42,333 nt of DNA, taken from the NCBI GenBank assembly GCA_026396115.1, contig JAPLXL010000003.1:1-42333 (forward strand). The letters are read 5' to 3'. Of this stretch, positions 14,542 through 42,190 are shown one piece after another (position 1 is the first letter of the stretch; the number at the start of each line of letters is the position of its first letter). The notes under the pieces were generated by a model. It was not told the DNA's origin and searched no databases. It worked only from the letters and a program-made list of their open reading frames with translations. The position numbers and the translations under genes are program-made. This DNA comes from Candidatus Nealsonbacteria bacterium. Lineage in GTDB: Bacteria > Patescibacteriota > Minisyncoccia > Minisyncoccales > RBG-13-42-11.

Positions 14542-16358
14542 AATTTTCAATTTTCAATTACCAAGTGTTAGCGAAAGTGGAAAAGAAGAAAATCTTCTTC
14601 TCTGACTTTCAATTTTCAAAGAGAGGTTTTACTTTTATTGATGTGATGGTAGGCACGGCTTTGGTGCTCATTATCTTTATGGGAATTTTTAGTGCATATC
14701 AGTTAGGAATGAAAGCGGTTGGGCAGGCAAAAAATAAAATTACAGCAACCGCTTTGGCTAACGAGCAAATAGAAAAAATTAGAAATTTACCCTACGAATC
14801 AGTAGGTATTATAGACGGACAATTGCCTGTTGCTGTCGGAGTTTTGGCCTCATCTACGAACATTTTTTTAAACAATGTAGAGTATTTTGTTAAAAGAAAT
14901 ATTGAATACATTTCTGATGAAGCTGATGGAATTGGCGATGAAGATGAGTGTGATTTGGATTATAAAAGAGCCGAGATTAAAGTTTCTTGGGGAGGAAGAT
15001 TTTTAGGAGAAGTAAAGATGGTTACAGACATCGCTCCCAAAAATAAATTTGAAGAAATTGCTTCTTGTGAAGCCCAGCCCGGAGGAATTCTTTCTGTCAA
15101 GGTTTTTGACGCTTATGGCATAATGGTTGTCTCTCCTTTAATTGAAGTTTTTGAAGAGGTGAGCGGAGAATTGATTGCCTCTTATATGCCACTCAGCGGC
15201 AAAAAAGATATTCCTTTAGCTACTTCTACTTACAAAGTACTTGTTTCTAAAACCGGTTACTGCACAGATAGAACATACGGCACAGATGAAATTACTACTC
15301 CAATAAAGCCTCACCCAATAATTTTAGAGAAGCAAACTACAGAAATTAGCTTCTCTATTGATAAAATTAGCGCTTTTTCAGTAAATACTTTTTCCCCTTG
15401 GGGAGAAAGTATTTGGGCAGATTCTTTCCAAGACACCAGCAAGATTTTTGAAATGGAGAATGTGGTTGTGGCTGGAGGAGAAGCAAAATTAGCTACCACT
15501 ACCGAGGGTTATTATCCTTCCGGTTTTTTAATTTCCACTGAAATTTCGCCGACAAATTTACTGAATTGGAATGAATTTATTTTTACAGACTCAGAACCAA
15601 TTGATACAGATTTGAAATACCGGATTTATTATGCCACCAACACCAGTTGGGAGCTTATTTCAGATACAGACTTGCCGGGTAATTCAATAGGCTTTGACGA
15701 AAGTCCAGTGGATTTATCAGGATTAGATTCGGCTATCTACCAAAAACTTAAACTCAGAGCCAATTTTTTAACTAACACCATAACCACTACTCCGACTCTT
15801 TACGATTGGCAGGTTTCTTGGATTACTTCTGAAGCCACACCAATTCCTAATGTGACTTTTAATTTAAGAGGAGCTAAACTTATTGGCTATGATGTTAATG
15901 AAAATCCGATTTATAAATATTCTCAAAATTCTGCTTCCACTAACCAGGGTCAGATTGATACTGTGGGTTTGGAATGGGACAATTATACTTTTTCTGTTGA
16001 TACTGAAACCAGTTTAAATTTAGTAGGGATTGATCCTGAGCCTCAGCCGATTGGTTTGATACCAGACACCATCTTGCAAGTAAATTTATATTTGGAATCA
16101 GAAAATTCTCTTTTGGTTACTGTTCAAAATATTGAGACCTTAGAGCCCATATTTTCAGCCGCAGTCAGATTGTTTAATTCTGGATTAGGTTATGATACTA
16201 CTCAGTATACAAATGAGAAAGGTCAAACTTATTTTATTTCTTTGACTGCTACCACTTACAATTTAGAGGTTCAGGCACCAGGATGTTTAGATTATGAGGG
16301 TCAAGTTTCTGTTTCGGGCAATACGACAAAGACAGTGGGACTTGAGAGAGTGGAATAA
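14538..16358 (+). CDS. Large minor pilin (PilV-like) with C-terminal beta-sandwich domains
   Basis: Prepilin site KRG|FTFID plus a hydrophobic helix, EKIRNLPY, and a Thr-rich extracellular region. The leader contains a family I element. Confidence 0.75.
   Translation: MKFSIFNYQVLAKVEKKKIFFSDFQFSKRGFTFIDVMVGTALVLIIFMGIFSAYQLGMKAVGQAKNKITATALANEQIEKIRNLPYESVGIIDGQLPVAVGVLASSTNIFLNNVEYFVKRNIEYISDEADGIGDEDECDLDYKRAEIKVSWGGRFLGEVKMVTDIAPKNKFEEIASCEAQPGGILSVKVFDAYGIMVVSPLIEVFEEVSGELIASYMPLSGKKDIPLATSTYKVLVSKTGYCTDRTYGTDEITTPIKPHPIILEKQTTEISFSIDKISAFSVNTFSPWGESIWADSFQDTSKIFEMENVVVAGGEAKLATTTEGYYPSGFLISTEISPTNLLNWNEFIFTDSEPIDTDLKYRIYYATNTSWELISDTDLPGNSIGFDESPVDLSGLDSAIYQKLKLRANFLTNTITTTPTLYDWQVSWITSEATPIPNVTFNLRGAKLIGYDVNENPIYKYSQNSASTNQGQIDTVGLEWDNYTFSVDTETSLNLVGIDPEPQPIGLIPDTILQVNLYLESENSLLVTVQNIETLEPIFSAAVRLFNSGLGYDTTQYTNEKGQTYFISLTATTYNLEVQAPGCLDYEGQVSVSGNTTKTVGLERVE
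14560..14607 (-). repeat. Family I element (48 bp), in frame in the pilin leader peptide
   Basis: ACCAAGTGTTAGCGAAAGTGGAAAAGAAGAAAATCTTCTTCTCTGACT interrupts a TTTTCAA heptamer run. Confidence 0.75.
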
Positions 16359-16402
16359 GAAAAATCAAAGATTAATCCGCCAACTGGCAGACAAAAATCA
16401 AA

Positions 16403-16456
16403 AGTCGAAGAGGACTTCGTCTTCTTCTTCACCTTCACTTCCTTCGGAAGCTTGGT
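16403..16456 (+). repeat. Family I element (54 bp) directly before ATG 16459
   Basis: AGTCGAAGAGGACTTCGTCTTCTTCTTCACCTTCACTTCCTTCGGAAGCTTGGT. Confidence 0.9.
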
Positions 16457-16458
16457 AT

Positions 16459-18958: not shown

Positions 18959-19068
18959 ATGTTCAATGAATCTTTGATTCATTTCACCTTTGAGTTCAAT
19001 GAATCTTTGATTCATTTCGATCTTCATTAAATTTTCAATTTAATTCGATGTTCAATGAATTTTTAATT
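18959..19068 (+). repeat. Family II palindrome array (4 units)
   Basis: TTC-AATGAATC-TTT-GATTCATT-TC twice, the variant TTC-ATTAAATT-TTC-AATTTAAT-TCG, and one partial unit. Confidence 0.85.
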
Positions 19069-19070
19069 AT

Positions 19071-19119
19071 CTAGCTTCCGAAGGAAGCGAAGATGGAGAA
19101 GAGATTTATCTCTTCGACT
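19071..19119 (-). repeat. Family I element upstream of pilM
   Basis: CTAGCTTCCGAAGGAAGCGAAGATGGAGAAGAGATTTATCTCTTCGACT. Confidence 0.9.
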
Positions 19120-19126
19120 TATTTCA

Positions 19127-20230
19127 ATGTTTGATTTTCTTAGTTTAAAACAACAAGCCTTTGGTTTGGACATCTCTGATTTATCTTTAAAAATTGTAAA
19201 ACTTAAAAAAAATGGCCGGTTTTTCGATTTGGCTTCTTTTGGCGAAACTCAAATTAAGCCCAGAGTAGTTAAAAAAGGAGAAATTAGAGACCAAGACAAA
19301 TTAGCAGAAATAATTAAAAAAGCGGTGCGAGAGGTAAAAGGTGAAAAATTGGGAACAAGAAATGCCGTGGTTTCTTTGTCAGAAGAGAAAGCTTTTTTGC
19401 AAGTAATTCAAATGCCCCGACTTTCAGAGGAAGATTTAAAATCAGCCGTAATTTTTGAAGCTGAAAATCACATACCCTTGCCAATTGAAGAAGTTTACTT
19501 GGATTATCAGATTATTTCTCCCTTGCGTAACCATTTGGACCACCTCGATGTTTTAATTGCTGCTTTTCCAAAAAAAATAATTGATTCTTACGTAACTTGC
19601 CTTAAAAAGGCAAATATCAAACCAATTGTTTTAGAAATTGAATCTTTAGCCATTAGCCGCGCTTTGATTAAAGATGAAACTACTACCCGACCCGTTCTTT
19701 TAATTGATTTTGGCGCCAACCGAAGCGTTTTTATTATTTTTGCCGGTTGCTCTGTGAGATTTACTTTTTCTATACCTGTTTCTTCCCAAAGTTTTACCGA
19801 AGTTGTCTCTCGAGCAATGAAAATCGATTTAATCAAAGCTGAAAAATTAAAAATAAAATATGGGCTGGAAGAAAAGTCTACAAAAATAGGAAAAGAGGTT
19901 TTCGAATCTCTTATTCCTGCTTTAACCGATTTAACCGAGCAAATTAAAAAATACCTTGATTATTATCAGACCCACGCTTTTCACGAGCACTTACCGCCAA
20001 ACGGTAAAGGAATAGAAAAAATTTTAATTTGCGGAGGCGGAGCTAAATTAAAGGGATTTACTTCTTTTCTTTCGTCTGAATTAAAAATCCCGGTTGAAAT
20101 TGGCAATCCCTGGATAAATATTTTGCCTCCCACCGTCCAACCCAAAGAGCAAATGTTAATTTATGAAAAAGAAGAATCTTTGGGCTACACTACTGCCCTA
20201 GGACTAGCCCTCCGTGGCATATATGATTAA
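19127..20230 (+). CDS. pilM: Type IV pilus assembly protein PilM
   Basis: FGLDISD, HIPLPIEEVYLDY, LIDFGA, ICGGGA and ALGLALR. Confidence 0.95.
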   Translation: MFDFLSLKQQAFGLDISDLSLKIVKLKKNGRFFDLASFGETQIKPRVVKKGEIRDQDKLAEIIKKAVREVKGEKLGTRNAVVSLSEEKAFLQVIQMPRLSEEDLKSAVIFEAENHIPLPIEEVYLDYQIISPLRNHLDHLDVLIAAFPKKIIDSYVTCLKKANIKPIVLEIESLAISRALIKDETTTRPVLLIDFGANRSVFIIFAGCSVRFTFSIPVSSQSFTEVVSRAMKIDLIKAEKLKIKYGLEEKSTKIGKEVFESLIPALTDLTEQIKKYLDYYQTHAFHEHLPPNGKGIEKILICGGGAKLKGFTSFLSSELKIPVEIGNPWINILPPTVQPKEQMLIYEKEESLGYTTALGLALRGIYD

Positions 20231-20774
20231 TCTTTTACCGCACCAAAACAAAGAAGAACTTTTACAGGAAGAAAACTGGAAGATTGTTATGATTTTAGGG
20301 ATTAATATATTAGTAATTTTTGTTTGTTTTGTTTTAATTTTATATTCAATAAACATTTTTATTTCCGGAGAAATTAATTTTCAAAAAATTATTTATGAAC
20401 AAAGAGAGAAAGAATTTGAAACTTCCCAAATGCAGACTCTTCAGCAAAATTTAATAACTTTTAACGAAACTCTCTCACGCTTAGATTCTTTCTATCAGGA
20501 TTGGTTTAACGCAACAAAAATTTTAGAAGAAATTTCAGAAACTATTCCTTCAGAAATCTATCTGACCAATTTATCAATTGATCCGAAAACTGTAAAAGAA
20601 AAAGAAGTAGAATGTATTCTGGTCGGTTTTTCTCCCACTCGAGAAGACCTACTTTTGTTTAAAGAAAATTTAGAAAAAAAAGAAATTTTTGAAGAAGTTT
20701 ATTTTCCGCCAGCCAATTGGGTGAAACCAACAGATATCAACTTTAGGGTTACTTTCAAAATAAAATGGCAATAA
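20223..20774 (+). CDS. pilN: PilN-like protein
   Basis: MINLLP PilM-binding motif and a TM helix; follows pilM. Confidence 0.85.
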   Translation: MINLLPHQNKEELLQEENWKIVMILGINILVIFVCFVLILYSINIFISGEINFQKIIYEQREKEFETSQMQTLQQNLITFNETLSRLDSFYQDWFNATKILEEISETIPSEIYLTNLSIDPKTVKEKEVECILVGFSPTREDLLLFKENLEKKEIFEEVYFPPANWVKPTDINFRVTFKIKWQ

Positions 20775-21304
20775 AGAAGAAAATCTATTTAACGTTAATA
20801 ATTTTTTCGCTTTTAATTATTCTAATAATTGTTTTTGTTATTTTTCCTCTTTTTCGCGGGATAAAAAATAATTCCAAAGAATTAATTGTTCAAAAAGAAA
20901 AATTTGTCGCCTTGGAGGAAAAAATTACAAATCTTGAAAAATTCAAAGTTTTGTACGCAGAACTTCAACATTTTTTAAAAGAAATTGACAACTTGTTTGT
21001 TGATTCGGGGGTCCCGGTAGAATTTATTAGTTTTTTGGAAAAAACTTCTGAAAAATCTCAGCTTAAAATTGAAATCCTGCCTACCTCCGACAAAAAAATG
21101 GAAAAGGATTTTTGGCCCTTTCTTACTTTTCAAATAACTTCTACCGGTTCTTTTACTAATTTTTTAAAATTTTTAGAAAAATTAGAAAATGGTCTCTATT
21201 TGGTTGAAGTACAAAATGTAAGCATCAGTAAATTAACAGGAGATAATGACATTGTTTCAGATAATGTTAGGGCTAATTTTTCCGTCAAAGTTTTTGTTAA
21301 ATAA
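20765..21304 (+). CDS. pilO: PilO-like protein
   Basis: TM helix, coiled coil, GSFTNFLKFLEKLEN, and synteny with pilM-pilN. Confidence 0.8.
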   Translation: MAIKKKIYLTLIIFSLLIILIIVFVIFPLFRGIKNNSKELIVQKEKFVALEEKITNLEKFKVLYAELQHFLKEIDNLFVDSGVPVEFISFLEKTSEKSQLKIEILPTSDKKMEKDFWPFLTFQITSTGSFTNFLKFLEKLENGLYLVEVQNVSISKLTGDNDIVSDNVRANFSVKVFVK

Positions 21305-21309
21305 AATAA

Positions 21310-21364
21310 TCAATGAATTTTCAATTCATTTCAATCTTCAATAAATTTTCAATTTATTTCGATG
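21310..21364 (+). repeat. Family II palindrome array (2 units) ending in the next ATG
   Basis: TCAATGAATTTTCAATTCATTTCAATCTTCAATAAATTTTCAATTTATTTCGATG. Confidence 0.8.
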
Positions 21365-21664
21365 CTTAAAATAAAATTTAAAAAAATTAAAAAATCTTTA
21401 AAAAATCTGCCAAGAATTTTGGCAGAAAAAAGTTTTTTGACTTTTTTAGGGTTATTTTTTGTCGTTTTTCTTTTGGGATTGGCTGTTTTTTATTATTCCT
21501 ATGTTTTTTTAACCGAAATTTCCGATGAAACCATAGAGGAAGAAAAACTATTGAAACTTGACATGGAAAGCCAGCAAAAAGTTTTAGAGGAATGGCAAAA
21601 AAGAAACGAAAAATTCTTGGAGGCCGATATCAAAGAATATCCCGACCCCTTTAAAGTTGACTAA
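21362..21664 (+). CDS. Small membrane protein in the pilP position
   Basis: One TM helix and a C-terminal DPF motif; follows pilO. Confidence 0.7.
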   Translation: MLKIKFKKIKKSLKNLPRILAEKSFLTFLGLFFVVFLLGLAVFYYSYVFLTEISDETIEEEKLLKLDMESQQKVLEEWQKRNEKFLEADIKEYPDPFKVD

Positions 21665-21958: not shown

Positions 21959-22984
21959 TTATTTCTTCTCTTCCAGTTTTGCTTTTAGATTTATTTCTTT
22001 GCCGGCTCTAAGAACTTTTAAAGAAATTTCTTGATTAACTTCGCATTTTTGGAGAATATGCGAGAGCGGATTTTCTTCGGTAATTTTTTCTCCTTGGCAT
22101 TCTAAAATTATATCAAACTCTTTTAAACCGGCTTTTTCAGCAGCGCCTCCTGTGATTATGGCTGATTCTCCCAGGACCTCTCTGACAATTAAGGCGCCGT
22201 AATCCACCGGTAACTTATCCTTATCTGCAATTTCTTTGTTCAAAATAATATATTTTACTCCCAAAAATGGTCTCTTTATCTTTCCGTATTTTTTAACTTC
22301 TTCCAAATCTTTTTTGGCATAATTAATCGGAATAGCGAAACCAATGTTTTGAGCGCCCATTACGGTCGCCGTATTGATGCCGATTACTTTTCCTTCAATA
22401 TTGACCAAGGGACCGCCGGAATTTCCCGGGTTAATAGCGGCATCGGTTTGGATTAAACCCCTTAGCATTTCTGCTTGCCTGGATAAGCCAGAAAAAGCAG
22501 TGATATAGCGCGATAACCCGGAAACCACTCCGGTGCTTACCGTGTCGTGGAATTCGCCAAGAGCGTTGCCAATAGCAATTACGGTTTCTCCCAGTTCAAT
22601 TTTATCCGAATCTCCTAATTCTAAATAAGGAAAATTTTTAATGTTTATCTTTAAAATAGCCACGTCATTAATTGGATCTCGAGAGATTACTTTAGCCGGA
22701 TAAGTTTTGTTTGGTTCATAAATAACGGTATAATCCGCATCTCTTTCGGCAACAACATGGTTTGAAGTGATAATATAACCATCGGGGTAGACAATAAAAC
22801 CAGAGCCACCTCCGATTTTTGTTTTTTCTCTTTTGCCTTTTTTCATTTTAGGAACAACAAATTCTTGGCTGCCATAAGGAAAAAAATAAAATCCCTCTAT
22901 TTTGGGAAGGTCGCGGGAAATAACAATGGTGACTACTGCCGGACAAGCCCTTTTAACAATTTCAATAATTGGTGACTTTTCCAT
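21959..22984 (-). CDS. htrA: HtrA/DegP-like trypsin protease with one PDZ domain
   Basis: GSGFI, TSNHVV, DVAILK and TDAAINPGNSGGPL. No signal peptide is visible. Confidence 0.93.
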   Translation of the reverse strand: MEKSPIIEIVKRACPAVVTIVISRDLPKIEGFYFFPYGSQEFVVPKMKKGKREKTKIGGGSGFIVYPDGYIITSNHVVAERDADYTVIYEPNKTYPAKVISRDPINDVAILKINIKNFPYLELGDSDKIELGETVIAIGNALGEFHDTVSTGVVSGLSRYITAFSGLSRQAEMLRGLIQTDAAINPGNSGGPLVNIEGKVIGINTATVMGAQNIGFAIPINYAKKDLEEVKKYGKIKRPFLGVKYIILNKEIADKDKLPVDYGALIVREVLGESAIITGGAAEKAGLKEFDIILECQGEKITEENPLSHILQKCEVNQEISLKVLRAGKEINLKAKLEEKK

Positions 22985-23003
22985 TTTTTTATTTTATCAT
23001 CAA

Positions 23004-23049
23004 AGGCGAAGAGAGACAAGCTCTCTTCTTCACCTTCGCTCCGCTCGGT
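23004..23049 (+). repeat. Family I element (46 bp), intergenic
   Basis: AGGCGAAGAGAGACAAGCTCTCTTCTTCACCTTCGCTCCGCTCGGT. Confidence 0.9.
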
Positions 23050-23106
23050 AAATGATTGTCAACAAGCAAAAATTATGATAACCTTAATAATTGAAAATTA
23101 TTATTT

Positions 23107-23395: not shown

Positions 23396-23443
23396 CAGTG
23401 TTACCAATATGTTCAATGAATTTTTAATTCATTTCAATTTTCA

Positions 23444-23854
23444 ATGTTTAATTTTTTTAAAAAACAAAAAAAAGAGCCAAAAGACTTAAAAGAAATTTTA
23501 GAGCAATTTAAGGTTTTAGAAGGCAGTTTTGATAAACTTTCTCTAGAATTTGAGAATTTAAAGAAAGAACACCAGTTTTCGGTTCAGAAGGTTGGAATTA
23601 TAAGATTCAATCCTTTTTCCGAAGTTGGCGGAGACCAAAGCTTTTCTATTGCTTTGCTTGATGGAAACGATGACGGTTTGGTGATTACCAGTTTTTATAC
23701 GAGAGAGGGAAACAGAGTCTACGGAAAACCAATAAAAAATGGAAAATCTCAATACGCGTTTTCTCAGGAAGAAATAAAAGCAATTGAAATGGCAGAAAAA
23801 AGTAGTAGTAATAGATATGATGAAGAATCAAAAAACAACAACTCGGCCACCTGA
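23444..23854 (+). CDS. DUF4446-like protein
   Basis: RFNPFSEVGGDQSFSIALLD...YGKPI. A family II unit (23409-23446) precedes it. Confidence 0.8.
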   Translation: MFNFFKKQKKEPKDLKEILEQFKVLEGSFDKLSLEFENLKKEHQFSVQKVGIIRFNPFSEVGGDQSFSIALLDGNDDGLVITSFYTREGNRVYGKPIKNGKSQYAFSQEEIKAIEMAEKSSSNRYDEESKNNNSAT

Positions 23855-25472
23855 GCCGCAGCAAGAGGGGAAGAAGAGAATTTATCCTCTTCGACCTCCC
23901 GAGCCGCAGCGAGGGGCGGAGAAGAAGATTTATCTTCTTCGACCGCCAATCGTGGTGGTTCTGGGACATATTGATCATGGGAAGACCTCTCTCCTTACCG
24001 CCATAAAGGATTTTAAAATTTTAGAGAAAGAAACCGGAGGTATTACTCAACATATCGGGGCTTACCAGATTGAACATCAGGGTAAAAAAATCACTTTTCT
24101 TGATACGCCGGGCCATGAGGCTTTTTCTCAAATGCGCTCCAGGGGAGCGAAAGTGGCTGATATCGCAATTTTAGTTATTGATGCGGCAGAAGGAGTAAAG
24201 TCTCAAACAAAAGAAGCAATCTCACATATTAAAAAAGCCGGAATTCCGGTAATAATTGCTTTAAATAAAATTGACAAGCCTGAAGCCAATCCGGAAAAAG
24301 CAAAAAGAGAATTATCTCAAGAAGGTTTTTTAGTTGAGTCATTGGGAGGTAAGGTTCCTTCGCTTGAAATTTCAGCTAAAACCAAAAAGGGTATCCCCGA
24401 ACTTTTAGAATTAATTTTATTGGTAGCAGAAATGGAGGAATTAAAAGCCGATTCTCAAAAACCGGGGGAAGGCCTGGTCATTGAATCGTATTTGGACAAT
24501 TTAAGAGGCCCTACCGCCACCTTGCTTTTAACCGACGGCCACTTGAAAATAGGAGATACGGTTGGCACAAATTCAGCTTCTGTCAGAATTAAAAACATAG
24601 AAAATTTTCAAAAAACTTCCGTTCAAAAGGCACTTCCTTCAGACCCCGTGATTATTTTCGGTTTTAATCAAGCTCCTGGAGTTGGTGAGAAATTTAAGGT
24701 TTTTCCGGATTTGGCAAGCGCTGAAAATTATATTAAAACTTCAAAGGGCGGAGAAGATAAATCTTCTTCTTCCCCCTTCGCTGTCGCTCGGGAAGAAAAA
24801 GGAAAAGCTTCGGAAGTTTTAGAGGCAACTGATCAACAAAAGGTTTTAAATTTAATTTTAAAAACCGATGTTTTGGGATCTGCCGAAGCTATGGAAGGAA
24901 TTTTAAACTCTTTTCCGCAAGAAAAGATTTTTTTAAAGATTCTAAAATCAGAAACAGGCAACATTAACGAATCCGATATTAAATTAGCTCTCAGCAGCAG
25001 AGCAACAATTTTGGGCTTTAGGGTGAAGATGGATTTTATTGCTAAAAAGATGGCCGAGCGGGAAAAAGTTAAGATAATAATTTTTGAAGTTATTTATGAT
25101 TTGGTCGAGAGAGTGCGTAAAATAATGGAAAAAATTGTTGAACCGAAAGAATTGAGGACGGATTTTGGAAAAGTAAAAGTTTTAGCTAAATTTCTAACAG
25201 AAAAAAACCGCCAGATTATTGGTGGTAGAGTAACAGAGGGGGAGATAAAAAAAGGAGCTCTGATCGAAGTTTTTAGACCTGCCCGCGACGCAGGTGGAGG
25301 GAGGACAGAAGAGAAGATTGGACAAGGAAAAATGATTAACCTCCAAAGAAACAAAAAAAATGCAGTTTTAATCTCAAAAGGAGAAGAATGCGGGATTTTA
25401 TTTGAGGGAGATGTAATAATTGAAGAAGGAGATATTTTGTTGTTTTACACAGAAGAAAAGAAAAAAGGCTAG
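23817..25472 (+). CDS. infB: Translation initiation factor IF-2 (short form) with repeat-derived insertions
   Basis: GHIDHGKT, GGITQHIGAY, DTPGHEAF, NKID and GEECGI. The ATG at 23817 is preferred over the upstream alternative start. Confidence 0.96.
   Translation: MMKNQKTTTRPPEPQQEGKKRIYPLRPPEPQRGAEKKIYLLRPPIVVVLGHIDHGKTSLLTAIKDFKILEKETGGITQHIGAYQIEHQGKKITFLDTPGHEAFSQMRSRGAKVADIAILVIDAAEGVKSQTKEAISHIKKAGIPVIIALNKIDKPEANPEKAKRELSQEGFLVESLGGKVPSLEISAKTKKGIPELLELILLVAEMEELKADSQKPGEGLVIESYLDNLRGPTATLLLTDGHLKIGDTVGTNSASVRIKNIENFQKTSVQKALPSDPVIIFGFNQAPGVGEKFKVFPDLASAENYIKTSKGGEDKSSSSPFAVAREEKGKASEVLEATDQQKVLNLILKTDVLGSAEAMEGILNSFPQEKIFLKILKSETGNINESDIKLALSSRATILGFRVKMDFIAKKMAEREKVKIIIFEVIYDLVERVRKIMEKIVEPKELRTDFGKVKVLAKFLTEKNRQIIGGRVTEGEIKKGALIEVFRPARDAGGGRTEEKIGQGKMINLQRNKKNAVLISKGEECGILFEGDVIIEEGDILLFYTEEKKKG
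23850..23944 (-). repeat. Two tandem family I elements (48-bp period), in frame in infB
   Basis: They encode RPPEPQQEGKKRIYPL-RPPEPQRGAEKKIYLL before the native RPPIV. Confidence 0.92.
24746..24793 (+). repeat. Family I element (48 bp), in frame in the infB linker
   Basis: GGGCGGAGAAGATAAATCTTCTTCTTCCCCCTTCGCTGTCGCTCGGGA, encoding GGEDKSSSSPFAVARE. Confidence 0.9.
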
Positions 25473-25501
25473 TTGTAAAATTTTTAATCTTCAAACCTAC
25501 T

Positions 25502-26751: not shown

Positions 26752-26822
26752 AAGGCGAAAAGAAATTCATCTCTTTGAGTGGCGAAGAGATAAATCTCTT
26801 CTTTGCTCTGTGCTATCGCTTG
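26752..26822 (+). repeat. Family I elements: a fragment plus a copy abutting the tRNA-Gly(GCC) 3' end
   Basis: AAGGCGAAAAGAAATTCATCTCTTT and GGCGAAGAGATAAATCTCTTCTTTGCTCTGTGCTATCGCTTG. Confidence 0.85.
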
Positions 26823-27672: not shown

Positions 27673-27710
27673 TTTAGTGAGTGAATTTCGTTAGAAATTT
27701 ACGAAACTTT

Positions 27711-28331
27711 TTAGAGTTTTAGATTCTTTAATATTTTTTTTAAATCATTGGGCAATTCTGATTTAAATTCTTTTTCTCGACCATTTGGCAAATTTATCTT
27801 TAAACGATGAGAGTGTAAAAAATGTCTTTTTAATTCTTTGGGCGCAGGCTGATTTTTGAATCCGTACATTTTATCTCCGGCAATCGGATGGCCGAGATGA
27901 GCAAAATGGGTTCTGATTTGGTGCTTTCGGCCGGTCTTGAGTTCAACCTCAATCAAATCATAATCTTTAAATCTTTGCAATACTTTATATTTAGTAATTG
28001 CCTTTCTTTTTCCTTGAGAACCGGGTTCATGGGCTAGATATACTTTTTGTTTTTTTCTGTCTCCGGTTGAGCGCCCGATTAAAGTTTCAATTACCCCTTC
28101 TTTATTTTTAAGATTGCCGACTATTAAAGCCAAATATTTCTTCTTGACTCTTCTCTCTTTGAATTGCTTTTGGAAAAACTCTAAGGCCTTGCCACTTTTT
28201 GCTATTAAAAGTATTCCTGAAGTATCTTTATCTAATCTGTGAACTCTTTTTTGAAAATCATCGGAGTTTATTCCTGCTGGCTTGTCTATGACCAGCAAAT
28301 TTTCGTCTTCGTAAATAATATTAAACTTCAT
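27711..28331 (-). CDS. RluA/RluD-family pseudouridine synthase, compact, no S4 domain
   Basis: IDKPAG, HRLDKDTSG, TGRKHQIRTH and GDKMYG. Confidence 0.93.
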   Translation of the reverse strand: MKFNIIYEDENLLVIDKPAGINSDDFQKRVHRLDKDTSGILLIAKSGKALEFFQKQFKERRVKKKYLALIVGNLKNKEGVIETLIGRSTGDRKKQKVYLAHEPGSQGKRKAITKYKVLQRFKDYDLIEVELKTGRKHQIRTHFAHLGHPIAGDKMYGFKNQPAPKELKRHFLHSHRLKINLPNGREKEFKSELPNDLKKILKNLKL

Positions 28332-30390: not shown

Positions 30391-30595
30391 TACCGAGCTT
30401 CCATTACCGAGTTCCCATTTATGGGAACGAGGTGGAAGAAGAGGGCGAATCCTTCTTCGCCCTATAGAAGCGAATCGAAGAACATTCGTTCTTCTCTACC
30501 CTTCGCTGTGACTCGGGTAGGTGAAAAAGAGGGCGAAGAAAAGTTTTTCTTCTTTCGTCTCGTCTTTGACTCGACGGTCGAAGTCCTCTTCGCCT
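30391..30595. repeat. Compound/nested cluster of about five family I elements upstream of ftsH
   Basis: Copies at 30391-30404 (partial) and 30405-30462 (-), and an outer copy at 30467-30595 (-) interrupted by 30475-30519 (+) and 30532-30575 (+). Confidence 0.85.
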
Positions 30596-30685: not shown

Positions 30686-31834
30686 CTAATCAACCAATTT
30701 TAAACTTATTCGGTGTTCAACAGAATTAATGGAAAGGATTTGAAATTTGTATTTTTCGCTTATTTTTAAGGCTTCTTCCATTTTTGTTTTGGTTCCAAAT
30801 TCGGAAATATGGCAAAGTCCTTGAATTTTTGGAGTAATTTGAACAAAGACTCCGTAATGATAAAATTTGGTTACTTTACCTTCAATCACATCTCCTTTTT
30901 TATATTCTTTTTCAATATCTTTCCAGGGATCTTTTTTTAGGGCTTTCAAAGACAGGGAAACTTTATTATCGGAAATAGAAATAATTTTTGCCTTAACTTT
31001 TTCCCCCACTTTTACAACATTAGCCGGATTTTCGATCAGTTGCCAGTCCAATTCGGATATATGTATCAACCCCTCGATAAATTCAGGACAAGTTATTTCT
31101 AATTCTTGCCCTTTATAAGTCTGAGTCGAAGAAGATTCCTTTTTCTCCACCTCAGCTAACGCTTCGGTAGCTGAAGATTCGGCGGGGAACTTCATAAAAG
31201 CTCCAAAGTCGGTGATACCGGTGATTTCTCCTTTAACCACATCACCGACTTTATAATTTTTTAAAATTTCTTTTATTCTCCCATCTTTTTTGGCTTTTTC
31301 TGATAAAATCAATTTTCCTTGTTTTGAATCTAAATCAAGAACTTTAACTTCCATTTCTTTCCCAACAAATTTTTGAAGTTCTCCAATGATTTTAGAAACA
31401 TCCCCCTTTTCTACTCGAGGATAGTGTTCTGGCAGTAATTGGGAAACCGGTAAAAAAGCAGGGATGCCAAAAACTTCTGCTAAAAGACCTCCCTTGTTTG
31501 TCCCCAAAATTCTAACCTTTAGAGTTTCATCCTTGTCTTTTTGCTGTTTCAATTTTTCCCAGGTTAATTCGTCAGAGGCTTGGCTTAAAGAGAGTTCAAT
31601 ATAACCCTCTTCGTTCTCGAGGTCTATAATTTTGGCAAAAAGAGTGCTGCCAATTTTTGAATTCTTTATTTCTTCTCTGGCTTCTTGAAATTCTTTTCCG
31701 TAGATTATGCCTGTTCCCATCGGCCCCAAATCTAAAAAAACCGCAGACCTTGCTTTGCCGATAATTTTTCCTTCTACAATTTCACCAACTCTAAGAGGCT
31801 TTAAGAGATTATTTTTTTCCAGTAAATCTTTCAT
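30686..31834 (-). CDS. rpsA: 30S ribosomal protein S1 (four S1 domains) with a repeat-derived insertion
   Basis: S1 motifs NKGGL, AFLPVSQL, DFGAF, EGLIHISEL and GLCHISE. Confidence 0.92.
   Translation of the reverse strand: MKDLLEKNNLLKPLRVGEIVEGKIIGKARSAVFLDLGPMGTGIIYGKEFQEAREEIKNSKIGSTLFAKIIDLENEEGYIELSLSQASDELTWEKLKQQKDKDETLKVRILGTNKGGLLAEVFGIPAFLPVSQLLPEHYPRVEKGDVSKIIGELQKFVGKEMEVKVLDLDSKQGKLILSEKAKKDGRIKEILKNYKVGDVVKGEITGITDFGAFMKFPAESSATEALAEVEKKESSSTQTYKGQELEITCPEFIEGLIHISELDWQLIENPANVVKVGEKVKAKIISISDNKVSLSLKALKKDPWKDIEKEYKKGDVIEGKVTKFYHYGVFVQITPKIQGLCHISEFGTKTKMEEALKISEKYKFQILSINSVEHRISLKLVD
31124..31168 (+). repeat. Family I element (45 bp), in frame in rpsA
   Basis: AGTCGAAGAAGATTCCTTTTTCTCCACCTCAGCTAACGCTTCGGT, encoding TEALAEVEKKESSST. 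Confidence 0.8.
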
Positions 31835-31856
31835 ATATCAAGTTTTCGCATAGCGA

Positions 31857-32025
31857 ATCGAAAGAGGATTTCATCCTCTTTCTCACCTTCGTTTCCTTTG
31901 GAAACTCGGTAAACGAAGATGGAAAAGAGATTTATCTCTTTGACTTTAATTTACAATGAATATTGAATTTTTGCAATAGTTGTGATAAAATTAAATATGT
32001 CGATGAAATTACAATTTCATCTCCA
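31857..32025. repeat. Family I elements in the divergent rpsA promoter region
   Basis: Copies at 31857-31910 (+), 31914-31945 (-, partial) and 31999-32025 (+, the GATGAAATT variant also seen at 10881). Confidence 0.85.
31963..31991 (+). promoter_or_regulatory. Probable sigma70 promoter with extended -10
   Basis: TTGAAT-17 bp-TAAAAT, with TG-n before the -10. Confidence 0.5.
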
Positions 32026-33050: not shown

Positions 33051-33061
33051 CCGCTTGACGA

Positions 33062-33161
33062 ACCGAGTTTCCGAAGGAAGCGAAGTCGAAGAGATAAATC
33101 TCTTCTTCGCCCTTCGTTGCGACTCGGGTAGGTGAAGAAGAGTACAAAGTACTCTTCGCCT
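33062..33161. repeat. Nested family I pair upstream of gyrA
   Basis: The outer (-) copy is split at GCGAAG|GTGAAG by an inner (+) copy at 33086-33129, with AG on both sides. Confidence 0.92.
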
Positions 33162-35651: not shown

Positions 35652-35663
35652 TGCATATAATTA

Positions 35664-35717
35664 AGGCGAAGAGGACTTCGTCCTCTTCTTTATCTTCGCT
35701 TCCTTCGGAAGCTTGCT
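35664..35717 (+). repeat. Family I element (54 bp) at the 5' end of the methyltransferase gene
   Basis: AGGCGAAGAGGACTTCGTCCTCTTCTTTATCTTCGCTTCCTTCGGAAGCTTGCT. Confidence 0.9.
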
Positions 35718-35719
35718 AT

Positions 35720-37144: not shown

Positions 37145-37226
37145 GTCGGAGTGGCGGAACCGGAAGACGCGCTGGGTCTAGGACCCAGTGGGGAAACCCG
37201 TGAGAGTTCAAGTCTCTCCTCCGACA
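37145..37226 (+). tRNA. tRNA-Leu(TAG)
   Basis: Long variable arm, loop TC-TAG-GA (C33). Confidence 0.9.
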
Positions 37227-37272
37227 CCCGAGCCGTAGTGAAGGGTAAAGAAGAAGATTTATCTTCTTCGCC
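37227..37272 (-). repeat. Family I element abutting the tRNA-Leu 3' end
   Basis: CCCGAGCCGTAGTGAAGGGTAAAGAAGAAGATTTATCTTCTTCGCC. Confidence 0.9.
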
Positions 37273-37277
37273 CACCT

Positions 37278-37336: not shown

Positions 37337-38026
37337 TTATTCTCTAACAATAATTCTTCTTTTCTTTTCTCTTAAAATTTTAGGGATTCTAATTGTCAGA
37401 ATGTTGTTTTTCATTTCAGCCACAGCTCTTTGCGGGTCAACTTCAGAGGGCAGTATCACTTCTCTTGAAAAAGGTCCCCAAAAACATTCTTGGATAAAAT
37501 AGTCGCCGTTTTCTTCAAATGGTTTTTCTCTGCTTCCCTTAATGGTAATAATGTCTCTTTCAATTGAAATATCTAAATTTTCCGGCTTAACTCCGGCAAT
37601 TGCTGACTGAATAACCAAATCATTTTCGGTTTGATAAACATCAATTGCCAATTGTCCCTCTTCTATTTTGCCAAAAGAGGGCCATTTTTTTTCTTTTTGT
37701 TCCTTTAGTTCTTTTGGAGGTTCTTTTTCAGCCTGTTCTTTAACTTCTTCTTCTTCTCTTTCTTCTTCTCTTTCTTCTTCTGGCATTTTTGTTTGTGTTT
37801 CTAATTTTCTAATTTTTACTTCCGGCGATTCCTTTTCTTTTTTGGCAGTCGAAGAGAACTTCATTCTCTTCTCCACCTTCGCTTCCTTAGGAAGCTCGGT
37901 TTTTAATTTTTTCGGTTCTTTGCCCGTTTTTGTTTCAATTGGTTTTTCTTCTATTTCTTTTTCTGGTTCAGCAATTGGTTCTTCAATATCCATCCCCCTT
38001 TTTAATTTTTCAAAAAATGACGCCAT
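37337..38026 (-). CDS. Hsp20/alpha-crystallin family small heat-shock protein with a long charged N-terminus
   Basis: EGQLAIDVYQT, IAGVKPENLDI, ECFWGPFSR and NILTIRIPK. Confidence 0.9.
   Translation of the reverse strand: MASFFEKLKRGMDIEEPIAEPEKEIEEKPIETKTGKEPKKLKTELPKEAKVEKRMKFSSTAKKEKESPEVKIRKLETQTKMPEEEREEEREEEEVKEQAEKEPPKELKEQKEKKWPSFGKIEEGQLAIDVYQTENDLVIQSAIAGVKPENLDISIERDIITIKGSREKPFEENGDYFIQECFWGPFSREVILPSEVDPQRAVAEMKNNILTIRIPKILREKKRRIIVRE
37847..37900 (+). repeat. Family I element (54 bp), in frame in hsp20
   Basis: AGTCGAAGAGAACTTCATTCTCTTCTCCACCTTCGCTTCCTTAGGAAGCTCGGT, encoding TELPKEAKVEKRMKFSST. Confidence 0.93.
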
Positions 38027-38737: not shown

Positions 38738-38795
38738 TTTAAAAATTTCTAATAGGAGTCCACCAAAGATGGGAAGGTGGTGGGTGGGTTGTAGT

Positions 38796-41036
38796 CTAAA
38801 CCGGCCAGTTTTCAATCATTAGACATTTCTTTTTGTTTTTAATCGGCAGCTTTTGATAAATTTCTTCGGTGATAAAAGGGATAAAGGGATGTAAAAGTTC
38901 CAAGTTGGTTTTTAAAATTTGCAAAAGAAGGTATTGGCTAGCCTCCTTTTCTTTTTTATTGGAGCCCTGAAGCCGAGATTTTTCTTCCTCAATAATTTTA
39001 TCGCAAAAAATATGCCAGAAATAATGATAAATTTTTTCTGCCGCTTGGTAAAATTTGAAGGAGTCCATCAACTTGGTAATTTCTTTTGAAAAGCTGTTTA
39101 ATTCCCTTAAAATTTTCTTATCTTTTTTAGTTAATTTTGGCTTAATTTTGGGGTCAAAACCTTTTAGATTCATCAAGACAAACCGGCTGGCATTCCAGAT
39201 TTTATTGGCAAAATTGCGCATCCCCCTGATTTTATTATCGCTGATACAAATATCGGTTCCCGGCGTTGTTCCAAAGATGACTGACATCCTTAAAGCGTCT
39301 GCTCCATATTTTTGCACCATATCCATTGGATCGAGAACATTTCCTTTACTCTTTGACATCTTCTGACCATTTTCATCAACTACTCGGCAGTGAATATGAA
39401 CTATTTTAAAGGGAACCTCTTTTGTCAAATAAAGGCCGAACATTATCATTCTGGCAACCCAGAAAAACAAAATGTCCCACAGCGTATCCAAGACCGATGT
39501 TGGGTAGAAATATTTAAAGTCTTTGCTCTTTTGATAGCCAAGCGCGGTCAGCGGCCATTGTCCAGATAAAAACCAGGTGTCAAAGGTGTCTGTTTCTTGC
39601 AGAATTTTTTTACCTTTACATTTTTGGCAAGCTTTTTCCTCCAAAGAATAAACAGGATTTTTACTAGCGCTTAAACTTTGCAATCCTTTTTTGATTTCAG
39701 CAAAGTTGTATTTGTCCTTTAAATCTTTATAGGTTCCGTTTATTTTATTGCCTTTTTTATTAATAAAATTGATTAAAATATCAGGGTTGCAATCCAAGCA
39801 ATACCAAACTGGTATTTGAGGGCCCCAGACAATTTGTCTTCCAATATTCCAGTCACGGACATTTCTCATCCAATTAAGATACATTTTTTTAAATCTCTTT
39901 TCTGGAATAATCTTTATTCTTTCTTTTTCAACAGCTTCTAAGGCTGGTTTTGCCAAAGGTCCGATTTTCAAAAACCATTGAGGCATAATTAACGGCTCAA
40001 TAGTTGTTTTACAACGATAACAAATTCCTATTGAGTGCTTCAAGGGTTCAGTTTTTACCAGTTTTTCTGCTTTTTCCAAATCATTTATTGTTTTTTCCCG
40101 AGCCGTTTTTACTGTCAGGCCAAGATACTTTTCTGGCAGATTTGTCATTCTTCCATTTTTGTCAATAATGGTGATGGTTTCTAGGTTGTGAGTTTGGCCG
40201 ATTTCGTAGTCAGTGGTGTCGTGGCCAGGGGTTACCTTCAAGACTCCGGTACCAAAGTTAACATCGATTCTTTTGTCGGCGATTATGGGTACCTCTTTGT
40301 TAATGAGCGGGATAACAGCCTTTTTACCAATGAGATTTTTATATCTTTTGTCTGTTGGATTTACGGCTACGGCCACGTCCGCAAAAATAGTTTCTGGTCT
40401 CGTGGTGGCAATTTGCAAAGTCGTGTAATCCAAATAGTAGAGGAACTCGTCTTTTTCTACATAGTCTACTTCCAGGTCAGAAAAAGCAGTGCCGCATTTG
40501 GTGCAAAAATTCACAATTCTTTCTCCTCTGTAAATTAAGCCATCCCGATGCAGTTTACGGAAAGTGTCAAAAACTATTTTGACAATGTTTGGTTCAAGAC
40601 TGTAATGGTACCTAGTCCAGTCTAAAGAAAATCCTAATTTTTTAAGTTGTTCCCTATTTATATTTTTATTTTTTTCAACAAATTCAGAAATCATTTTGTA
40701 TAAGGTTTTTCTGCCAAAATCAAAACGGCTTTTTCCTTCTTTGGCCAATCTTTTTTCAAAGACAAACTGCGTTTCAATCCCAGCATGGTCACCTCCTGGC
40801 AACCAGAGAGTCGGTCTGCCTCGCATCCGATAGTATCTAATTATAATATCTTCTACTGCAAAAAGAACATGACCCATGTGCAGAGGATCATTGGCGTTGG
40901 GGAGAGGTAAGAGGATGGTGAAAGGTTTTTTACGAGGAACGATTTTGGGAGTAAACCAGCCACCTTTTTCCCAAAACTTATATATTTTACCTTCAACTTT
41001 TTTTGGTTCGTAAGTTTTAGAAAGTTCTGAGTTCAT
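38796..41036 (-). CDS. valS: Valine--tRNA ligase (short, no C-terminal coiled coil)
   Basis: PN...LHMGH, DHAGIETQ, TTRPET, DTFDTWF, FFWVARM and KMSKS. Confidence 0.96.
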   Translation of the reverse strand: MNSELSKTYEPKKVEGKIYKFWEKGGWFTPKIVPRKKPFTILLPLPNANDPLHMGHVLFAVEDIIIRYYRMRGRPTLWLPGGDHAGIETQFVFEKRLAKEGKSRFDFGRKTLYKMISEFVEKNKNINREQLKKLGFSLDWTRYHYSLEPNIVKIVFDTFRKLHRDGLIYRGERIVNFCTKCGTAFSDLEVDYVEKDEFLYYLDYTTLQIATTRPETIFADVAVAVNPTDKRYKNLIGKKAVIPLINKEVPIIADKRIDVNFGTGVLKVTPGHDTTDYEIGQTHNLETITIIDKNGRMTNLPEKYLGLTVKTAREKTINDLEKAEKLVKTEPLKHSIGICYRCKTTIEPLIMPQWFLKIGPLAKPALEAVEKERIKIIPEKRFKKMYLNWMRNVRDWNIGRQIVWGPQIPVWYCLDCNPDILINFINKKGNKINGTYKDLKDKYNFAEIKKGLQSLSASKNPVYSLEEKACQKCKGKKILQETDTFDTWFLSGQWPLTALGYQKSKDFKYFYPTSVLDTLWDILFFWVARMIMFGLYLTKEVPFKIVHIHCRVVDENGQKMSKSKGNVLDPMDMVQKYGADALRMSVIFGTTPGTDICISDNKIRGMRNFANKIWNASRFVLMNLKGFDPKIKPKLTKKDKKILRELNSFSKEITKLMDSFKFYQAAEKIYHYFWHIFCDKIIEEEKSRLQGSNKKEKEASQYLLLQILKTNLELLHPFIPFITEEIYQKLPIKNKKKCLMIENWPV

Positions 41037-42190
41037 AATTTTTCATCTATTTTAAGATTAGCATTAGCTTTAATCTTTTTCCATACCTTTTTTTTATACC
41101 ACTTGAAATATCCGGCAATTGCTACCATTGCGGCATTGTCGGTGCAAAAATTTTTTGCCGGAACCAAAAAATTTATTGCTAATTGTCGATTGCTAATTGT
41201 TAATTGAAATTGTTTTCTCAGCTCAGTATTAGCAGCGACGCCGCCGCTCAAAATGATTGATTTTGCTTTATAATCTTTAGCCACTTTTAAGGTTTTATGG
41301 ATTAAAACATCAATAATTGCCTGCTGAGTTTCAGTACACATTTCCTCTATATATTTTTTTGACCTTCTGACTTTTGAAGAACGTTTTTTGAAATCATACA
41401 AAACCGCTGTTTTCAAACCGGAGAAACTAAAATCATAATTTTTTTGATAAATCATCGGTCTCGGCAAAAAAACACGGGTTCGACCTGTGTATTTTTGCCT
41501 GTGTTTTTTAGCCAGGGTTGAAATAATCGGACCACCGGGGAAGCCGAGCCCTAAAATTCTAGCTGCTTTATCAAAACATTCACCAGCCGCATCGTCGCGA
41601 GTTTCTCCTAAAATTTTGTATTGGCCGAATTTCTTCACCCCATTAGAAGATTTTCGATTTCTAACGGGGTTCATTAAAATAAGTTGAGTGTGCCCGCCAC
41701 TGACCACTAAACAAATTGCCGGAAAGATATTTTTGTAATTTGTAATTTGTAATTTGGAATTTTCGCCAATAAAATTGGCGAGAATGTGTGCCTCTATGTG
41801 ATTTATTGGGACTATTGGCAATTTCATCTTTTCTGCCAACTCCTTGGCAAAATTTATTCCTGTCCATAAGCAAAGTTCCAGACCGGGGCCAATGGTAACT
41901 GCAATTAAGTTAATTTTTGGATTACCGGCTTCTTTTAAAGCTCTTTTTAAAACTATCGGTAAATTTTTTTGATGTTCTTTTTTAGCTAAAAAAGGATAAA
42001 CCCCTCCATATTTTGCATGTAGTTTTACTTGCGATGAAACCACATTACTTCTAATTTCGAAAGGCGAAGAGAACTTCGTTCTCTTCTTCACCTTCGTTTC
42101 CATAAATGGAAGCTCGGTTTTCGAATTTCTAATTTCTAAAACAGCGACGCAGGTATCATCGCAACTTGTTTCAATGGCTAAAATAATCAT
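41033..42190 (-). CDS. tsaD: tRNA N6-threonylcarbamoyl transferase TsaD with several repeat-derived insertions
   Basis: IETSCDDT, HIEAH, SGGHT, DDAAGECFDK, FSFSGLKT and CTDNAAM. Confidence 0.97.
   Translation of the reverse strand: MIILAIETSCDDTCVAVLEIRNSKTELPFMETKVKKRTKFSSPFEIRSNVVSSQVKLHAKYGGVYPFLAKKEHQKNLPIVLKRALKEAGNPKINLIAVTIGPGLELCLWTGINFAKELAEKMKLPIVPINHIEAHILANFIGENSKLQITNYKNIFPAICLVVSGGHTQLILMNPVRNRKSSNGVKKFGQYKILGETRDDAAGECFDKAARILGLGFPGGPIISTLAKKHRQKYTGRTRVFLPRPMIYQKNYDFSFSGLKTAVLYDFKKRSSKVRRSKKYIEEMCTETQQAIIDVLIHKTLKVAKDYKAKSIILSGGVAANTELRKQFQLTISNRQLAINFLVPAKNFCTDNAAMVAIAGYFKWYKKKVWKKIKANANLKIDEKL
42062..42118 (+). repeat. Family I element (57 bp), in frame in tsaD
   Basis: Identical to 9551-9607 at 56 of 57 positions; encodes TELPFMETKVKKRTKFSSP. 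Confidence 0.95.

Follow-up and report, generated by a model that had tools for sequence, protein, structure and literature searches.

The 42,333 nt contig JAPLXL010000003.1 (assembly GCA_026396115.1) of Candidatus Nealsonbacteria, a member of the Patescibacteria or candidate phyla radiation (CPR), contains numerous copies of a short palindromic repeat, here designated Family I, and several of these copies lie in frame within the housekeeping genes infB, rpsA, hsp20 and tsaD. The contig was analysed over its full length and is referred to below as the window. We consider it likely that Family I is a non-autonomous, hairpin-forming dispersed repeat with two subfamilies, that it is in turnover, and that copies within genes are kept in frame and are translated in tolerant loops of the host proteins. 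Closely related strains differ in the presence or absence of individual copies, the reading frame of the host gene is preserved, copies within genes are biased in both length and frame, and the copies in modelled proteins are found in loops.

If this explanation is correct, Family I would currently be gained and lost in this lineage of the Patescibacteria, with the surviving copies mostly filling very short intergenic spacers. Survival within a gene would require a length that is a multiple of three (3n), a stop-free frame encoding a tolerable and mostly hydrophilic peptide, and a position where the protein forms a surface loop, linker or disordered arm. Copies of this kind would be transcribed and translated as part of the host protein, and populations would then contain length variants of IF-2, S1, TsaD, Hsp20 and many housekeeping proteins.

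The genome consists of 792,029 bases in 8 contigs and is 100% complete as judged by marker genes. The window is the whole of contig C8, has a GC content of ~0.35 and includes 17 tRNA genes. Copies were detected in the genome and in the window using an iterated nhmmer profile, and additionally using a covariance model built from the copies in the window. Host genes in the window were identified from Pfam domain matches.

Structure and distribution of Family I

The window contains several overlapping repeat families that share a common architecture. From the 5' end, this comprises a start of the type RGKCGAAGA, a first hairpin, a conserved linker, a second hairpin and the 3' end GCTCGGT. Family I units are 45-57 nt long. 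Hairpin 1 has a stem of 8-9 bp, closed in many cases by a TTCG or ATAAAT loop. The long subfamily (~50-60 nt) has both hairpins, while in the short subfamily (~46-48 nt) hairpin 2 has shrunk to a few bases. Hairpin 1 of the consensus has 8 pairs, and 4 of the 8 show compensatory double changes in an alignment of 17 window copies. Single copies fold as RNA with energies of -20 to -24 kcal/mol, and with z-scores down to -5.2.

Genome-wide, nhmmer recovered 286 matches, 23 of them in the window, and merging of overlaps left 272 copies. This single repeat of ~50 nt makes up ~2% of the genome. The covariance model found 17 matches in the window with E <= 3.4e-11 and 43 with E <= 1, the latter number including palindrome echoes, and a 16-nt core pattern matched 3 times with 0.19 matches expected by chance. 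In a scan of the window with Rfam, only the tRNAs passed the thresholds, and no family, intron families included, matched the copies. A permissive Rfam search around one copy gave nothing close to a gathering score.

Sixty related genomes, 25 from the same family and 35 from other families of the order, were also searched. Matches to the Family I model were found in 20 of the 25 and in 8 of the 35, respectively, and the model search, which capped the count per genome, found no copy in the remaining 32. The match scores in relatives are near those in this genome (73.9 bits in G055, compared with 79.7 bits for the best copy here).

Copies in infB and their variation between strains

The initial annotation, made from the DNA sequence of the window, had placed Family I copies in infB (three copies), rpsA, hsp20, tsaD and the leader of a pilin-like gene. 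All of the listed copies are present at the coordinates given, that in the pilin-like leader as a weak match, and Pfam confirms the host genes (Table 1). The coding copies, in the order infB, rpsA, hsp20, tsaD and pilin-like leader, are 48, 48, 48, 45, 54, 57 and 48 nt long, and the two 46-nt copies, at 23004 and 33084, are intergenic, again as annotated. The Pfam domains of IF-2 are GTP_EFTU (residues 56-213), EF-G_D2 (229-306) and the IF-2 domain (336-444). The ATG at 23817 was taken as the start of infB because the 28 aligned orthologues begin M..K.Q..TRPP.

In all 28 IF-2 orthologues, M..K.Q..TRPP is followed by IVVVLGH. In the window, two additional units of 16 residues lie between RPP and IVVVLGH, each ending again in RPP, and copy 2 ends at the conserved RPP codons that precede the G domain. 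Neither these 32 N-terminal residues nor the GGEDKSSSSPFAVARE segment, located in the linker between domain II and C1, is present in any of the 28 orthologues, among which the length of that linker varies. In the IF-2 model (28 sequences), the mean predicted local distance difference test score (pLDDT) is 80.6. It falls below 50 at residues 1-37, which cover most of the N-terminal units (residues 13-44), and at residues 312-335, where the linker copy lies between a helix (299-311) and a strand (342-350).

Strains were compared using metagenome contigs found with IF-2 (L031 and following), which share 73-97% DNA identity with the window over up to 20 kb. Turnover of Family I is ongoing in these strains, and the same codons are used recurrently. 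At the infB N-terminus, where strains with 78-97% DNA identity have 0, 1 or 2 copies, two units are present in the window and in L031, two units with a different variant as the second in L033, one unit (copy 2 missing) in L032 and L036, and none in L034. At the linker, the short copy in sense orientation is shared by the window and L036, and the same position is occupied by a long copy in antisense orientation in L031 and L034. In L033 the linker has a short and a long copy, both antisense, and in L037 half a long copy in sense orientation. L035 has ~12 bases resembling the start of the element and nothing more, and the linker is empty in L032, L038 and L039. An empty linker allele was also found in an independent groundwater DNA run (X6), in which a contig skips 24745-24794 and has 2 letters in between, a difference of 48 nt. 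At a site in the C1 domain of IF-2 that is empty in the window, L036 has gained a further copy of 48 nt in frame. All 13 IF-2 alleles that were compared are open and in frame, and their differences in length are mostly Family I inserts.

Two further features of infB do not involve Family I. At the N-terminal site (window positions 23840-23945), L035, L038 and L039 have a different, GC-rich short hairpin with a 6-bp stem, also in frame; this site takes more than one kind of element. A G/A-rich segment of 8-10 residues (PARDAGGGRT) at approximately residues 494-503 of the IF-2 open reading frame (ORF) has no Family I match. It is found only in the window and L031-L035, and is absent from L036-L042.

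Copies in rpsA, tsaD and hsp20

The rpsA copy is degenerate and matches the model weakly. It was nevertheless accepted, because L033, with flanks that are 93% identical, lacks exactly the 45 nt from 31124 to 31168, and this empty allele proves the insertion. By sequence, the copy lies inside one S1 domain, between the FGAF and GLIHISE strands.

The 19-residue insert in TsaD (TELPFMETKVKKRTKFSSP) is found in none of the 23 aligned orthologues, one of which has the same residues flanking the insert, VAVLEIRNSK and then LEIKSN. The copy is bordered on each side by TTTCGAA, and its mRNA-sense fold has an energy of -19.1 kcal/mol. In an AlphaFold2 model of TsaD (22 sequences, mean pLDDT 84.5), the insert (residues 25-43) lies where strand 12-20 turns into strand 44-53, and pLDDT is < 50 at residues 30-40. 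The earlier suggestion that insertions persist in loops and linkers thus holds for the two proteins that were modelled, TsaD and IF-2.

A second insert unique to this TsaD, NPVRNRKSSNGVK (41624-41668, - strand, residues ~175-189), is not Family I. It is a small palindrome with 11-nt arms, matching at 10 of 11 positions, and a 10-nt loop, and it is located in the turn that joins strands 168-174 and 190-195, where pLDDT is < 50. The TsaD of relative G017 has a Family-I-type peptide in this same loop. In a repeat-rich relative (G002:C28:19661-20895), the match to tsaD is split by stop codons into three pieces; frame-shifting inserts may have broken the gene, or there may be an assembly problem.

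In hsp20, the N-terminus MASFFEKLKKGMG (MASFFEKLK) is conserved in orthologues and lies upstream of the copy, which is therefore inside the coding sequence. The 54-nt limits of this copy are model-based only, and its 18 residues are found in none of 24 orthologues. The Hsp20 proteins of L142, L146 and L160 have repeat-type peptides of their own elsewhere in the same K/E-rich arm. As mRNA-sense RNA, the copy folds with -23.6 kcal/mol (z = -4.2). These comparisons support the initial annotation's reading of the segments as insertions: they are missing from 28 IF-2, 23 TsaD and 24 Hsp20 orthologues, and close strains have clean empty sites.

Table 1. Family I copies in the window and the genes that contain them
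Feature	Position	Strand	Evidence or comment
infB (IF-2), host of three in-frame copies	23817..25472	+	Pfam domains and orthologue alignment
Short copy 1, a 48-nt unit reading EPQQEGKKRIYPLRPP, antisense to infB	23846..23897	-	51.5 bits
Short copy 2, in tandem with copy 1, 48-nt unit	23895..23944	-	45.8 bits
Short copy in infB linker between domain II and C1, read as GGEDKSSSSPFAVARE	24745..24795	+ (sense)	53.9 bits
rpsA (ribosomal protein S1), host gene	30686..31834	-	four Pfam S1 stretches
Degenerate 45-nt copy reading SATEALAEVEKKESS, antisense to rpsA	31124..31168	+	strain comparison; weak nhmmer match, E = 3.7e-4
tsaD, host gene	41033..42190	-	Pfam TsaD residues 45-357; conserved start MIILAIETSCDDT
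Long copy, antisense to tsaD, 57-nt insert read as TELPFMETKVKKRTKFSSP	42061..42118	+	74.7 bits
hsp20 (small heat-shock protein), host gene	37337..38026	-	Pfam HSP20 residues 131-225
Long 54-nt copy reading TELPKEAKVEKRMKFSST, antisense to hsp20, in K/E-rich N-terminal arm	37847..37900	+	67.2 bits
Weak, degenerate 48-nt copy, probably in long leader of pilin-like protein (ORF 14538-16358), upstream of KRG|FTFID	14560..14607	-	nhmmer E = 0.002; 27.7 bits
Long copy directly 5' of ATG of pilin-like gene (MKGFTLIE)	16402..16457	+	71.3 bits
Long copy directly 5' of ATGATG of methyltransferase gene	35663..35718	+	68.8 bits
Intergenic long copy beside tRNA-Gly	9550..9608	+	70.7 bits; fold -23.9 kcal/mol, z = -5.2
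Three clustered intergenic copies or part-copies	13153-13201, 13206-13227, 13231-13286	+, +, -	covariance model
Intergenic copy	19068..19120	-	63.2 bits; present in L033 with another loop
Intergenic 46-nt copy (23004) between ORF 21959-22984 and tRNA-Arg	23003..23050	+	covariance model
Intergenic pair (30405..30520)	30405-30463, 30472-30518	-, +	covariance model
Intergenic pair upstream of rpsA	31856-31911, 31905-31946	+, -	covariance model
Intergenic cluster (33061..33161), second member the 46-nt copy	33061-33113, 33083-33129, 33130-33157	-, +, -	covariance model
Copy abutting 3' end of tRNA-Leu	37226..37274	-	48.2 bits

Length and reading frame of copies within genes

Among the 272 copies in the genome, 112 are intergenic, 80 are internal to an ORF and away from its ends, 35 are <=60 codons from the longest possible start (and hence ambiguous), 10 are near a stop codon and 35 extend across an ORF end. 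Altogether, 125 of the 272 (46%) lie wholly in ORFs, while ORFs make up 88% of the genome (binomial p ~1e-63). Coding DNA is therefore strongly under-occupied.

Lengths and frames were examined in the 163 copies (95 long, 68 short) that have both end anchors and near-full coverage of the model; 16 copies failing the anchors were left out and the rest were partial. The bias towards 3n lengths expected from the initial annotation was found genome-wide. In the short subfamily, 29 of 30 internal copies belong to the 48-nt core-length class, compared with 12 of 20 intergenic copies (p = 0.004), and in the long subfamily the favoured (3n) length class includes 17 of 23 internal and 18 of 39 intergenic copies (p = 0.027). 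The pooled Fisher test gives p = 4.6e-5, with classes chosen post hoc.

The 30 short internal copies are also unevenly distributed over the available frames (chi-square p = 7.5e-9). Eighteen are read in the sense frame encoding G-E-E-D-K-S-S-S-S-P-F-A and 11 in antisense. Only one uses the second open sense frame, with its hydrophobic sequence K-K-I-D-F-L-L, and none the sense frame that contains TAA. The long subfamily has no significant frame bias (p = 0.15).

Twenty further ORFs with internal copies were compared with protein families, and 19 of them match named families end to end, across the insert. Named hosts are UvrA, UvrB, UvrC, IleRS, SecA, LepA, two PBPs, PBP2 among them, PNPase, PheT, MiaB-MiaA, a P-type ATPase, Acs, AlaRS, ThrRS, GatB, an aminotransferase, a PGM/PMM and a hexosaminidase-domain protein.

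Flanking sequences and potential mobilisers

Two types of gene that could supply a mobiliser do not track the repeat in the 60 relatives. Y1 transposase genes are present in 30 of these genomes, namely in 10 of the 19 with >=10 copies and 15 of the 32 without copies. This genome encodes a stand-alone GIY-YIG protein of 82 residues (G000:C2:164467-164715), nameless in NCBIfam, with a half-element-like stretch (hairpin 2 only) ~110 nt upstream. Its homologues show no association with the repeat either, being present in 10 of the 19 relatives with >=10 copies and 13 of the 32 without.

Flanking direct repeats of >=6 nt border 12 of the 163 copies, compared with 4.9 expected, and none of 300 shuffles reached 12, which is a weak excess. 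In a fixed-offset Hamming test, 4 of the 95 long copies match at the best offset (z ~3.6-3.7); this is the best of 120 settings and is unconvincing. There are clear single cases of duplication, one being the TTTCGAA pair around the tsaD copy and the other a site with three states. At 25476-25495, after the infB stop codon, TTTTTAA is present once in the window, on both sides of an element (TTTTTAA-element-TTTTTAA) in L031, and twice with no element in L032. The series resembles what cut-and-paste transposition would leave, namely a duplicated target and then, after excision, a footprint.

Beyond the 3' end, the flanking bases repeat the element's own 5' start in degenerate form. In long copies they include T at +1 (89%), G at +6 (65%) and A at +7 (93%), and in short copies G at +1 (88%), G at +7 (66%) and A at +8 (95%). 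Among copies with no neighbouring element, 19 of 86 long and 14 of 58 short ones are followed by a GAAGA-type motif, the background being 4.5%; on the opposite strand the numbers are 3 (long) and 0 (short). At the three sites with an available empty allele (rpsA, the infB linker and the site in infB that is filled in L036), that allele already contains the motif. This 3'-flank pattern fits either a target preference or copying by short homology, and part of it may come from start-codon contexts (ATGAA) and K/E-rich linkers. Our best guess is that movement would involve copying into sites that already resemble the element's 5' start, the agent being either a mobiliser acting in trans or host replication or repair via short homology.

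Alternative explanations

A number of observations weigh against a mobile repeat whose in-gene copies are tolerated and translated. Outside the favoured core-length class there are 7 of the 53 internal copies, and their ORFs are nonetheless open; the gene calls are ORF-based and were made in this analysis. Copies within genes match the model as well as intergenic ones, and the long ones fold equally well, the short ones slightly better (p = 0.04), so the hairpin itself could be under selection and not merely tolerated. The RNA run X20, with 0.09 of sampled words, yielded contigs over parts of infB and over copies of the repeat, none bridging a copy-gene junction. Y1_Tnp (PF01797), DDE_Tnp_1 (PF01609), rve (PF00665) and TnpB-like (PF07282) had no match in the genome, and target duplications are rare, variable in length and without a consistent signature. 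The preserved folding and the stable mRNA-sense hairpins, such as those of the tsaD and hsp20 copies, would also suit a model in which copies within genes do not reach the protein, owing to RNA excision or translational bypass, and leave no extra peptides. We regard this as highly improbable because of the frame and length biases: removal would need neither 3n lengths, nor avoidance of the TAA frame, nor a preference of 18 to 1 between the open sense frames, and all three are seen. Furthermore, none of the 13 IF-2 alleles is out of frame, and no Rfam family, introns among them, matches the copies. More can be said for the repeat being an RNA or DNA signal that serves the host, namely a stabilising or terminating hairpin at the ends of genes, a ribosome-binding leader or a binding site for a host protein (the role that NTS/SRM repeats have for Ssn nucleases), with the copies in genes as spill-over. 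The 112 intergenic copies are concentrated in the 12% of the genome that is intergenic, many long copies are separated from a following ATG by a constant, small number of bases, and the five bases after the 3' end are TATAT in 12, TAAAT in 7 and TAATG in 6 of 95 long copies. The compensatory changes in the hairpin, the nearly unchanged consensus in other families of the order (G055) and the stand-alone GIY-YIG gene, a type to which the Ssn nucleases belong in the account given in PMC11893778, point in the same direction. However, close strains lack individual copies, which are therefore dispensable singly, and even whole spacer clusters; more than half of the related genomes lack the repeat; the GIY-YIG homologues do not track it; and the single genome match to the published SRM pattern is not on a copy. 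A host function of this kind seems to us improbable.

Whether transposition is involved at all is a separate matter. Spread by DNA uptake and homologous recombination, with new sites arising through template switching or short-homology repair, would account for the four transposase families not found in the genome and for Y1 genes that do not track the repeat in relatives. It would equally account for 3' flanks that resemble the element's 5' start, for a GAAGA-type motif that exceeds background and pre-exists in empty alleles, and for the occupation of the same infB codons by different subfamilies in both orientations. On the other side are the TTTTTAA site at 25476 and the tsaD copy between two TTTCGAA repeats. 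Purine-rich flanks are also expected of K/E-rich linkers that tolerate inserts, and the motif is weaker for copies that are antisense to the gene (2 of 20 and 3 of 17). Spread without transposition seems to us possible, though unlikely. It is also unlikely, in our estimate, that homology-guided copying without a transposase repeatedly hits a few tolerant codons of essential genes as a self-propagating 'linker cassette' system. If that were true, natural populations would contain a standing assortment of length variants of core proteins, IF-2 among them, that differ at a single codon in copy number (zero to two), subfamily and orientation. We therefore favour a two-subfamily hairpin repeat in turnover, with in-frame copies probably translated in tolerant loops.

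Leader and intergenic copies in the window

The copy at 14560 was reported in the initial annotation as a coding insertion in a pilin leader. A match is present at this position, but it is degenerate, and a location within a coding leader is only probable. It is rated so on two grounds: no in-frame start codon separates the copy from the G|FTFID processing motif, and L035, the one related strain that covers it, has the same copy with a 3-nt deletion. Two other copies inside long ORFs, at 16402-16457 and 35663-35718, are probably 5' leaders rather than coding sequence, because an ATG directly follows each and because L035 lacks the 16402 copy while retaining its ATG context.

Intergenic copies also differ between strains. 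The cluster at 13153..13286 is wholly missing from L035 and L039, and the copy at 23004 is found in L031 and L033 but not in L039. Conversely, L031, L033, L035 and L036 have additional intergenic copies at sites that are empty in the window, and L036 has an in-frame 96-nt pair in the gene at 21959-22984, again where the window is empty.

Other repeats were noted in the window. An identical stretch of 20 bases (9626-9645 and 26802-26821) lies beside two different tRNA-Gly genes, between the tRNA and a Family I copy. A separate AT-rich family with units of the type TCAATGAATTTTCAATTCATTTCAATCTTCAA occupies spacers upstream of genes (18963-19083, 21282-21369 and 23413-23472), and the spacer after infB in L037 contains a stretch related to it. 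A 43-nt inverted-repeat family (9871-9913 and 27673-27715), also in spacers, has arms that are 88% complementary and includes GAAATTTACGAA-type palindromes; in L036 a member adjoins a Family I copy at the site corresponding to window positions 20218-20231. Finally, two stretches of ~76 nt (3754-3829 and 6730-6807), 78-84% identical and 3 kb apart, are found at the ends of two ORFs.

Relationship to known repeats

A close parallel is with the Rickettsia palindromic elements RPE-1 to RPE-10 (Ogata et al. 2000, as covered by the review PMC10969869), which are ~150 bp long and account for 44 insertions in R. conorii. The initial annotation had drawn this parallel, and it stands for behaviour but not for membership, as size and end tags differ. 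Like Family I, the RPEs are described in that review as palindromic dispersed repeats of a small genome that are inserted in frame in unrelated housekeeping genes, with host proteins that are expected to be functional, no transposase of their own and a patchy distribution among related species. Family I is much shorter and occurs in a different phylum. The CGTC tag given for RPE ends in PMC3733652 is found, as CGTC or GACG, at the 5' end of 3 of 95 long and none of 68 short Family I copies. The distinction was made by size and the CGTC tag. Family I is also far denser, with ~270 copies in 0.79 Mb compared with the number of insertions reviewed for R. conorii, and, unlike in the RPEs, close strains show repeated hits at one codon.

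The repetitive extragenic palindromes (REPs) of the GTAG and CGTC super-families, which include intragenic units (Di Nocera et al. 2013, PMC3733652), resemble Family I in several respects. As presented in that paper, they are short stem-loops with 8-9-bp stems and small loops, are often clustered and mostly intergenic, and in some cases lie in ORFs where they encode extra residues. Those of the CGTC type are recorded there as having no dedicated transposase; for Family I, too, none was found. However, only 15 of the 163 Family I copies (11 of 68 short and 4 of 95 long) have a GTAG tag next to their 3' end. Family I is also a fixed two-part module, a hairpin joined by a conserved linker to a second hairpin, whereas a REP is a single palindrome, and no Y1 gene of the REP-associated tyrosine transposase (RAYT) type was found in this genome (PF01797).

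Miniature inverted-repeat transposable elements, or MITEs, have as their defining features terminal inverted repeats and fixed-length duplications of the target site. Like Family I, they are small, non-autonomous and able to add peptides inside ORFs; ERIC and QMITE1 of Coxiella are examples of small non-autonomous MITEs that may lie in ORFs and add peptides, according to PMC10969869. The ends of Family I, RGKCGAAGA and GCTCGGT, are not inverted copies of each other, its inverted repeats are the internal hairpins, and its flanking duplications are rare and of variable length. As to elements derived from IS200/IS605, for which a TnpA (Y1) or TnpB partner and insertion beside a fixed 4-5-nt target, without duplication, would be expected, no Y1- or TnpB-like match was found here, and the conserved A at +7/+8 (93-95%) lies 5-8 nt from the 3' end and does not abut it.

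Ssn single-strand nucleases of the GIY-YIG type are associated with the NTS/SRM hairpin repeats (Chenal et al. 2025, PMC11893778). As here, these short repeats number in the hundreds per genome, and a GIY-YIG protein of ~90 residues that stands alone is encoded alongside them. However, the published SRM pattern is on no Family I copy and has 1 match in the genome, with 0.8 expected from shuffles; unlike the ssnA-type gene, the GIY-YIG gene found here has no full Family I copies flanking it; and SRMs are not described as in-frame inserts in the available text of PMC11893778.

DNA uptake sequences were ruled out, as the units are discrete inserts of 45-57 nt with presence and absence alleles rather than short motifs that build up by point mutation. 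Integron attC sites and dif-like sites are considered unlikely from their consensus. In a full-text search that most subscription journals and supplements fall outside, we found no paper linking Patescibacteria, CPR or Nealsonbacteria with MITEs, REPs or in-frame palindromic elements.

Implications

Almost no selfish repeats would be expected in streamlined genomes of 0.5-0.8 Mb. Family I extends the phenomenon of in-frame palindromic elements to a new phylum, in a smaller and much denser form, and dozens of essential genes have acquired copies without being inactivated. After the RPEs, it provides a second, independent and much denser natural experiment on the tolerance, and perhaps the recruitment, of inserted peptides by proteins. 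It marks loops of IF-2, TsaD, S1, aminoacyl-tRNA synthetases, SecA and Uvr proteins that take 15-35 extra residues, and its copies can serve as strain-level markers for uncultured Patescibacteria. With no recognisable mobiliser and with recurrent sites, the mechanism of insertion becomes a testable question.

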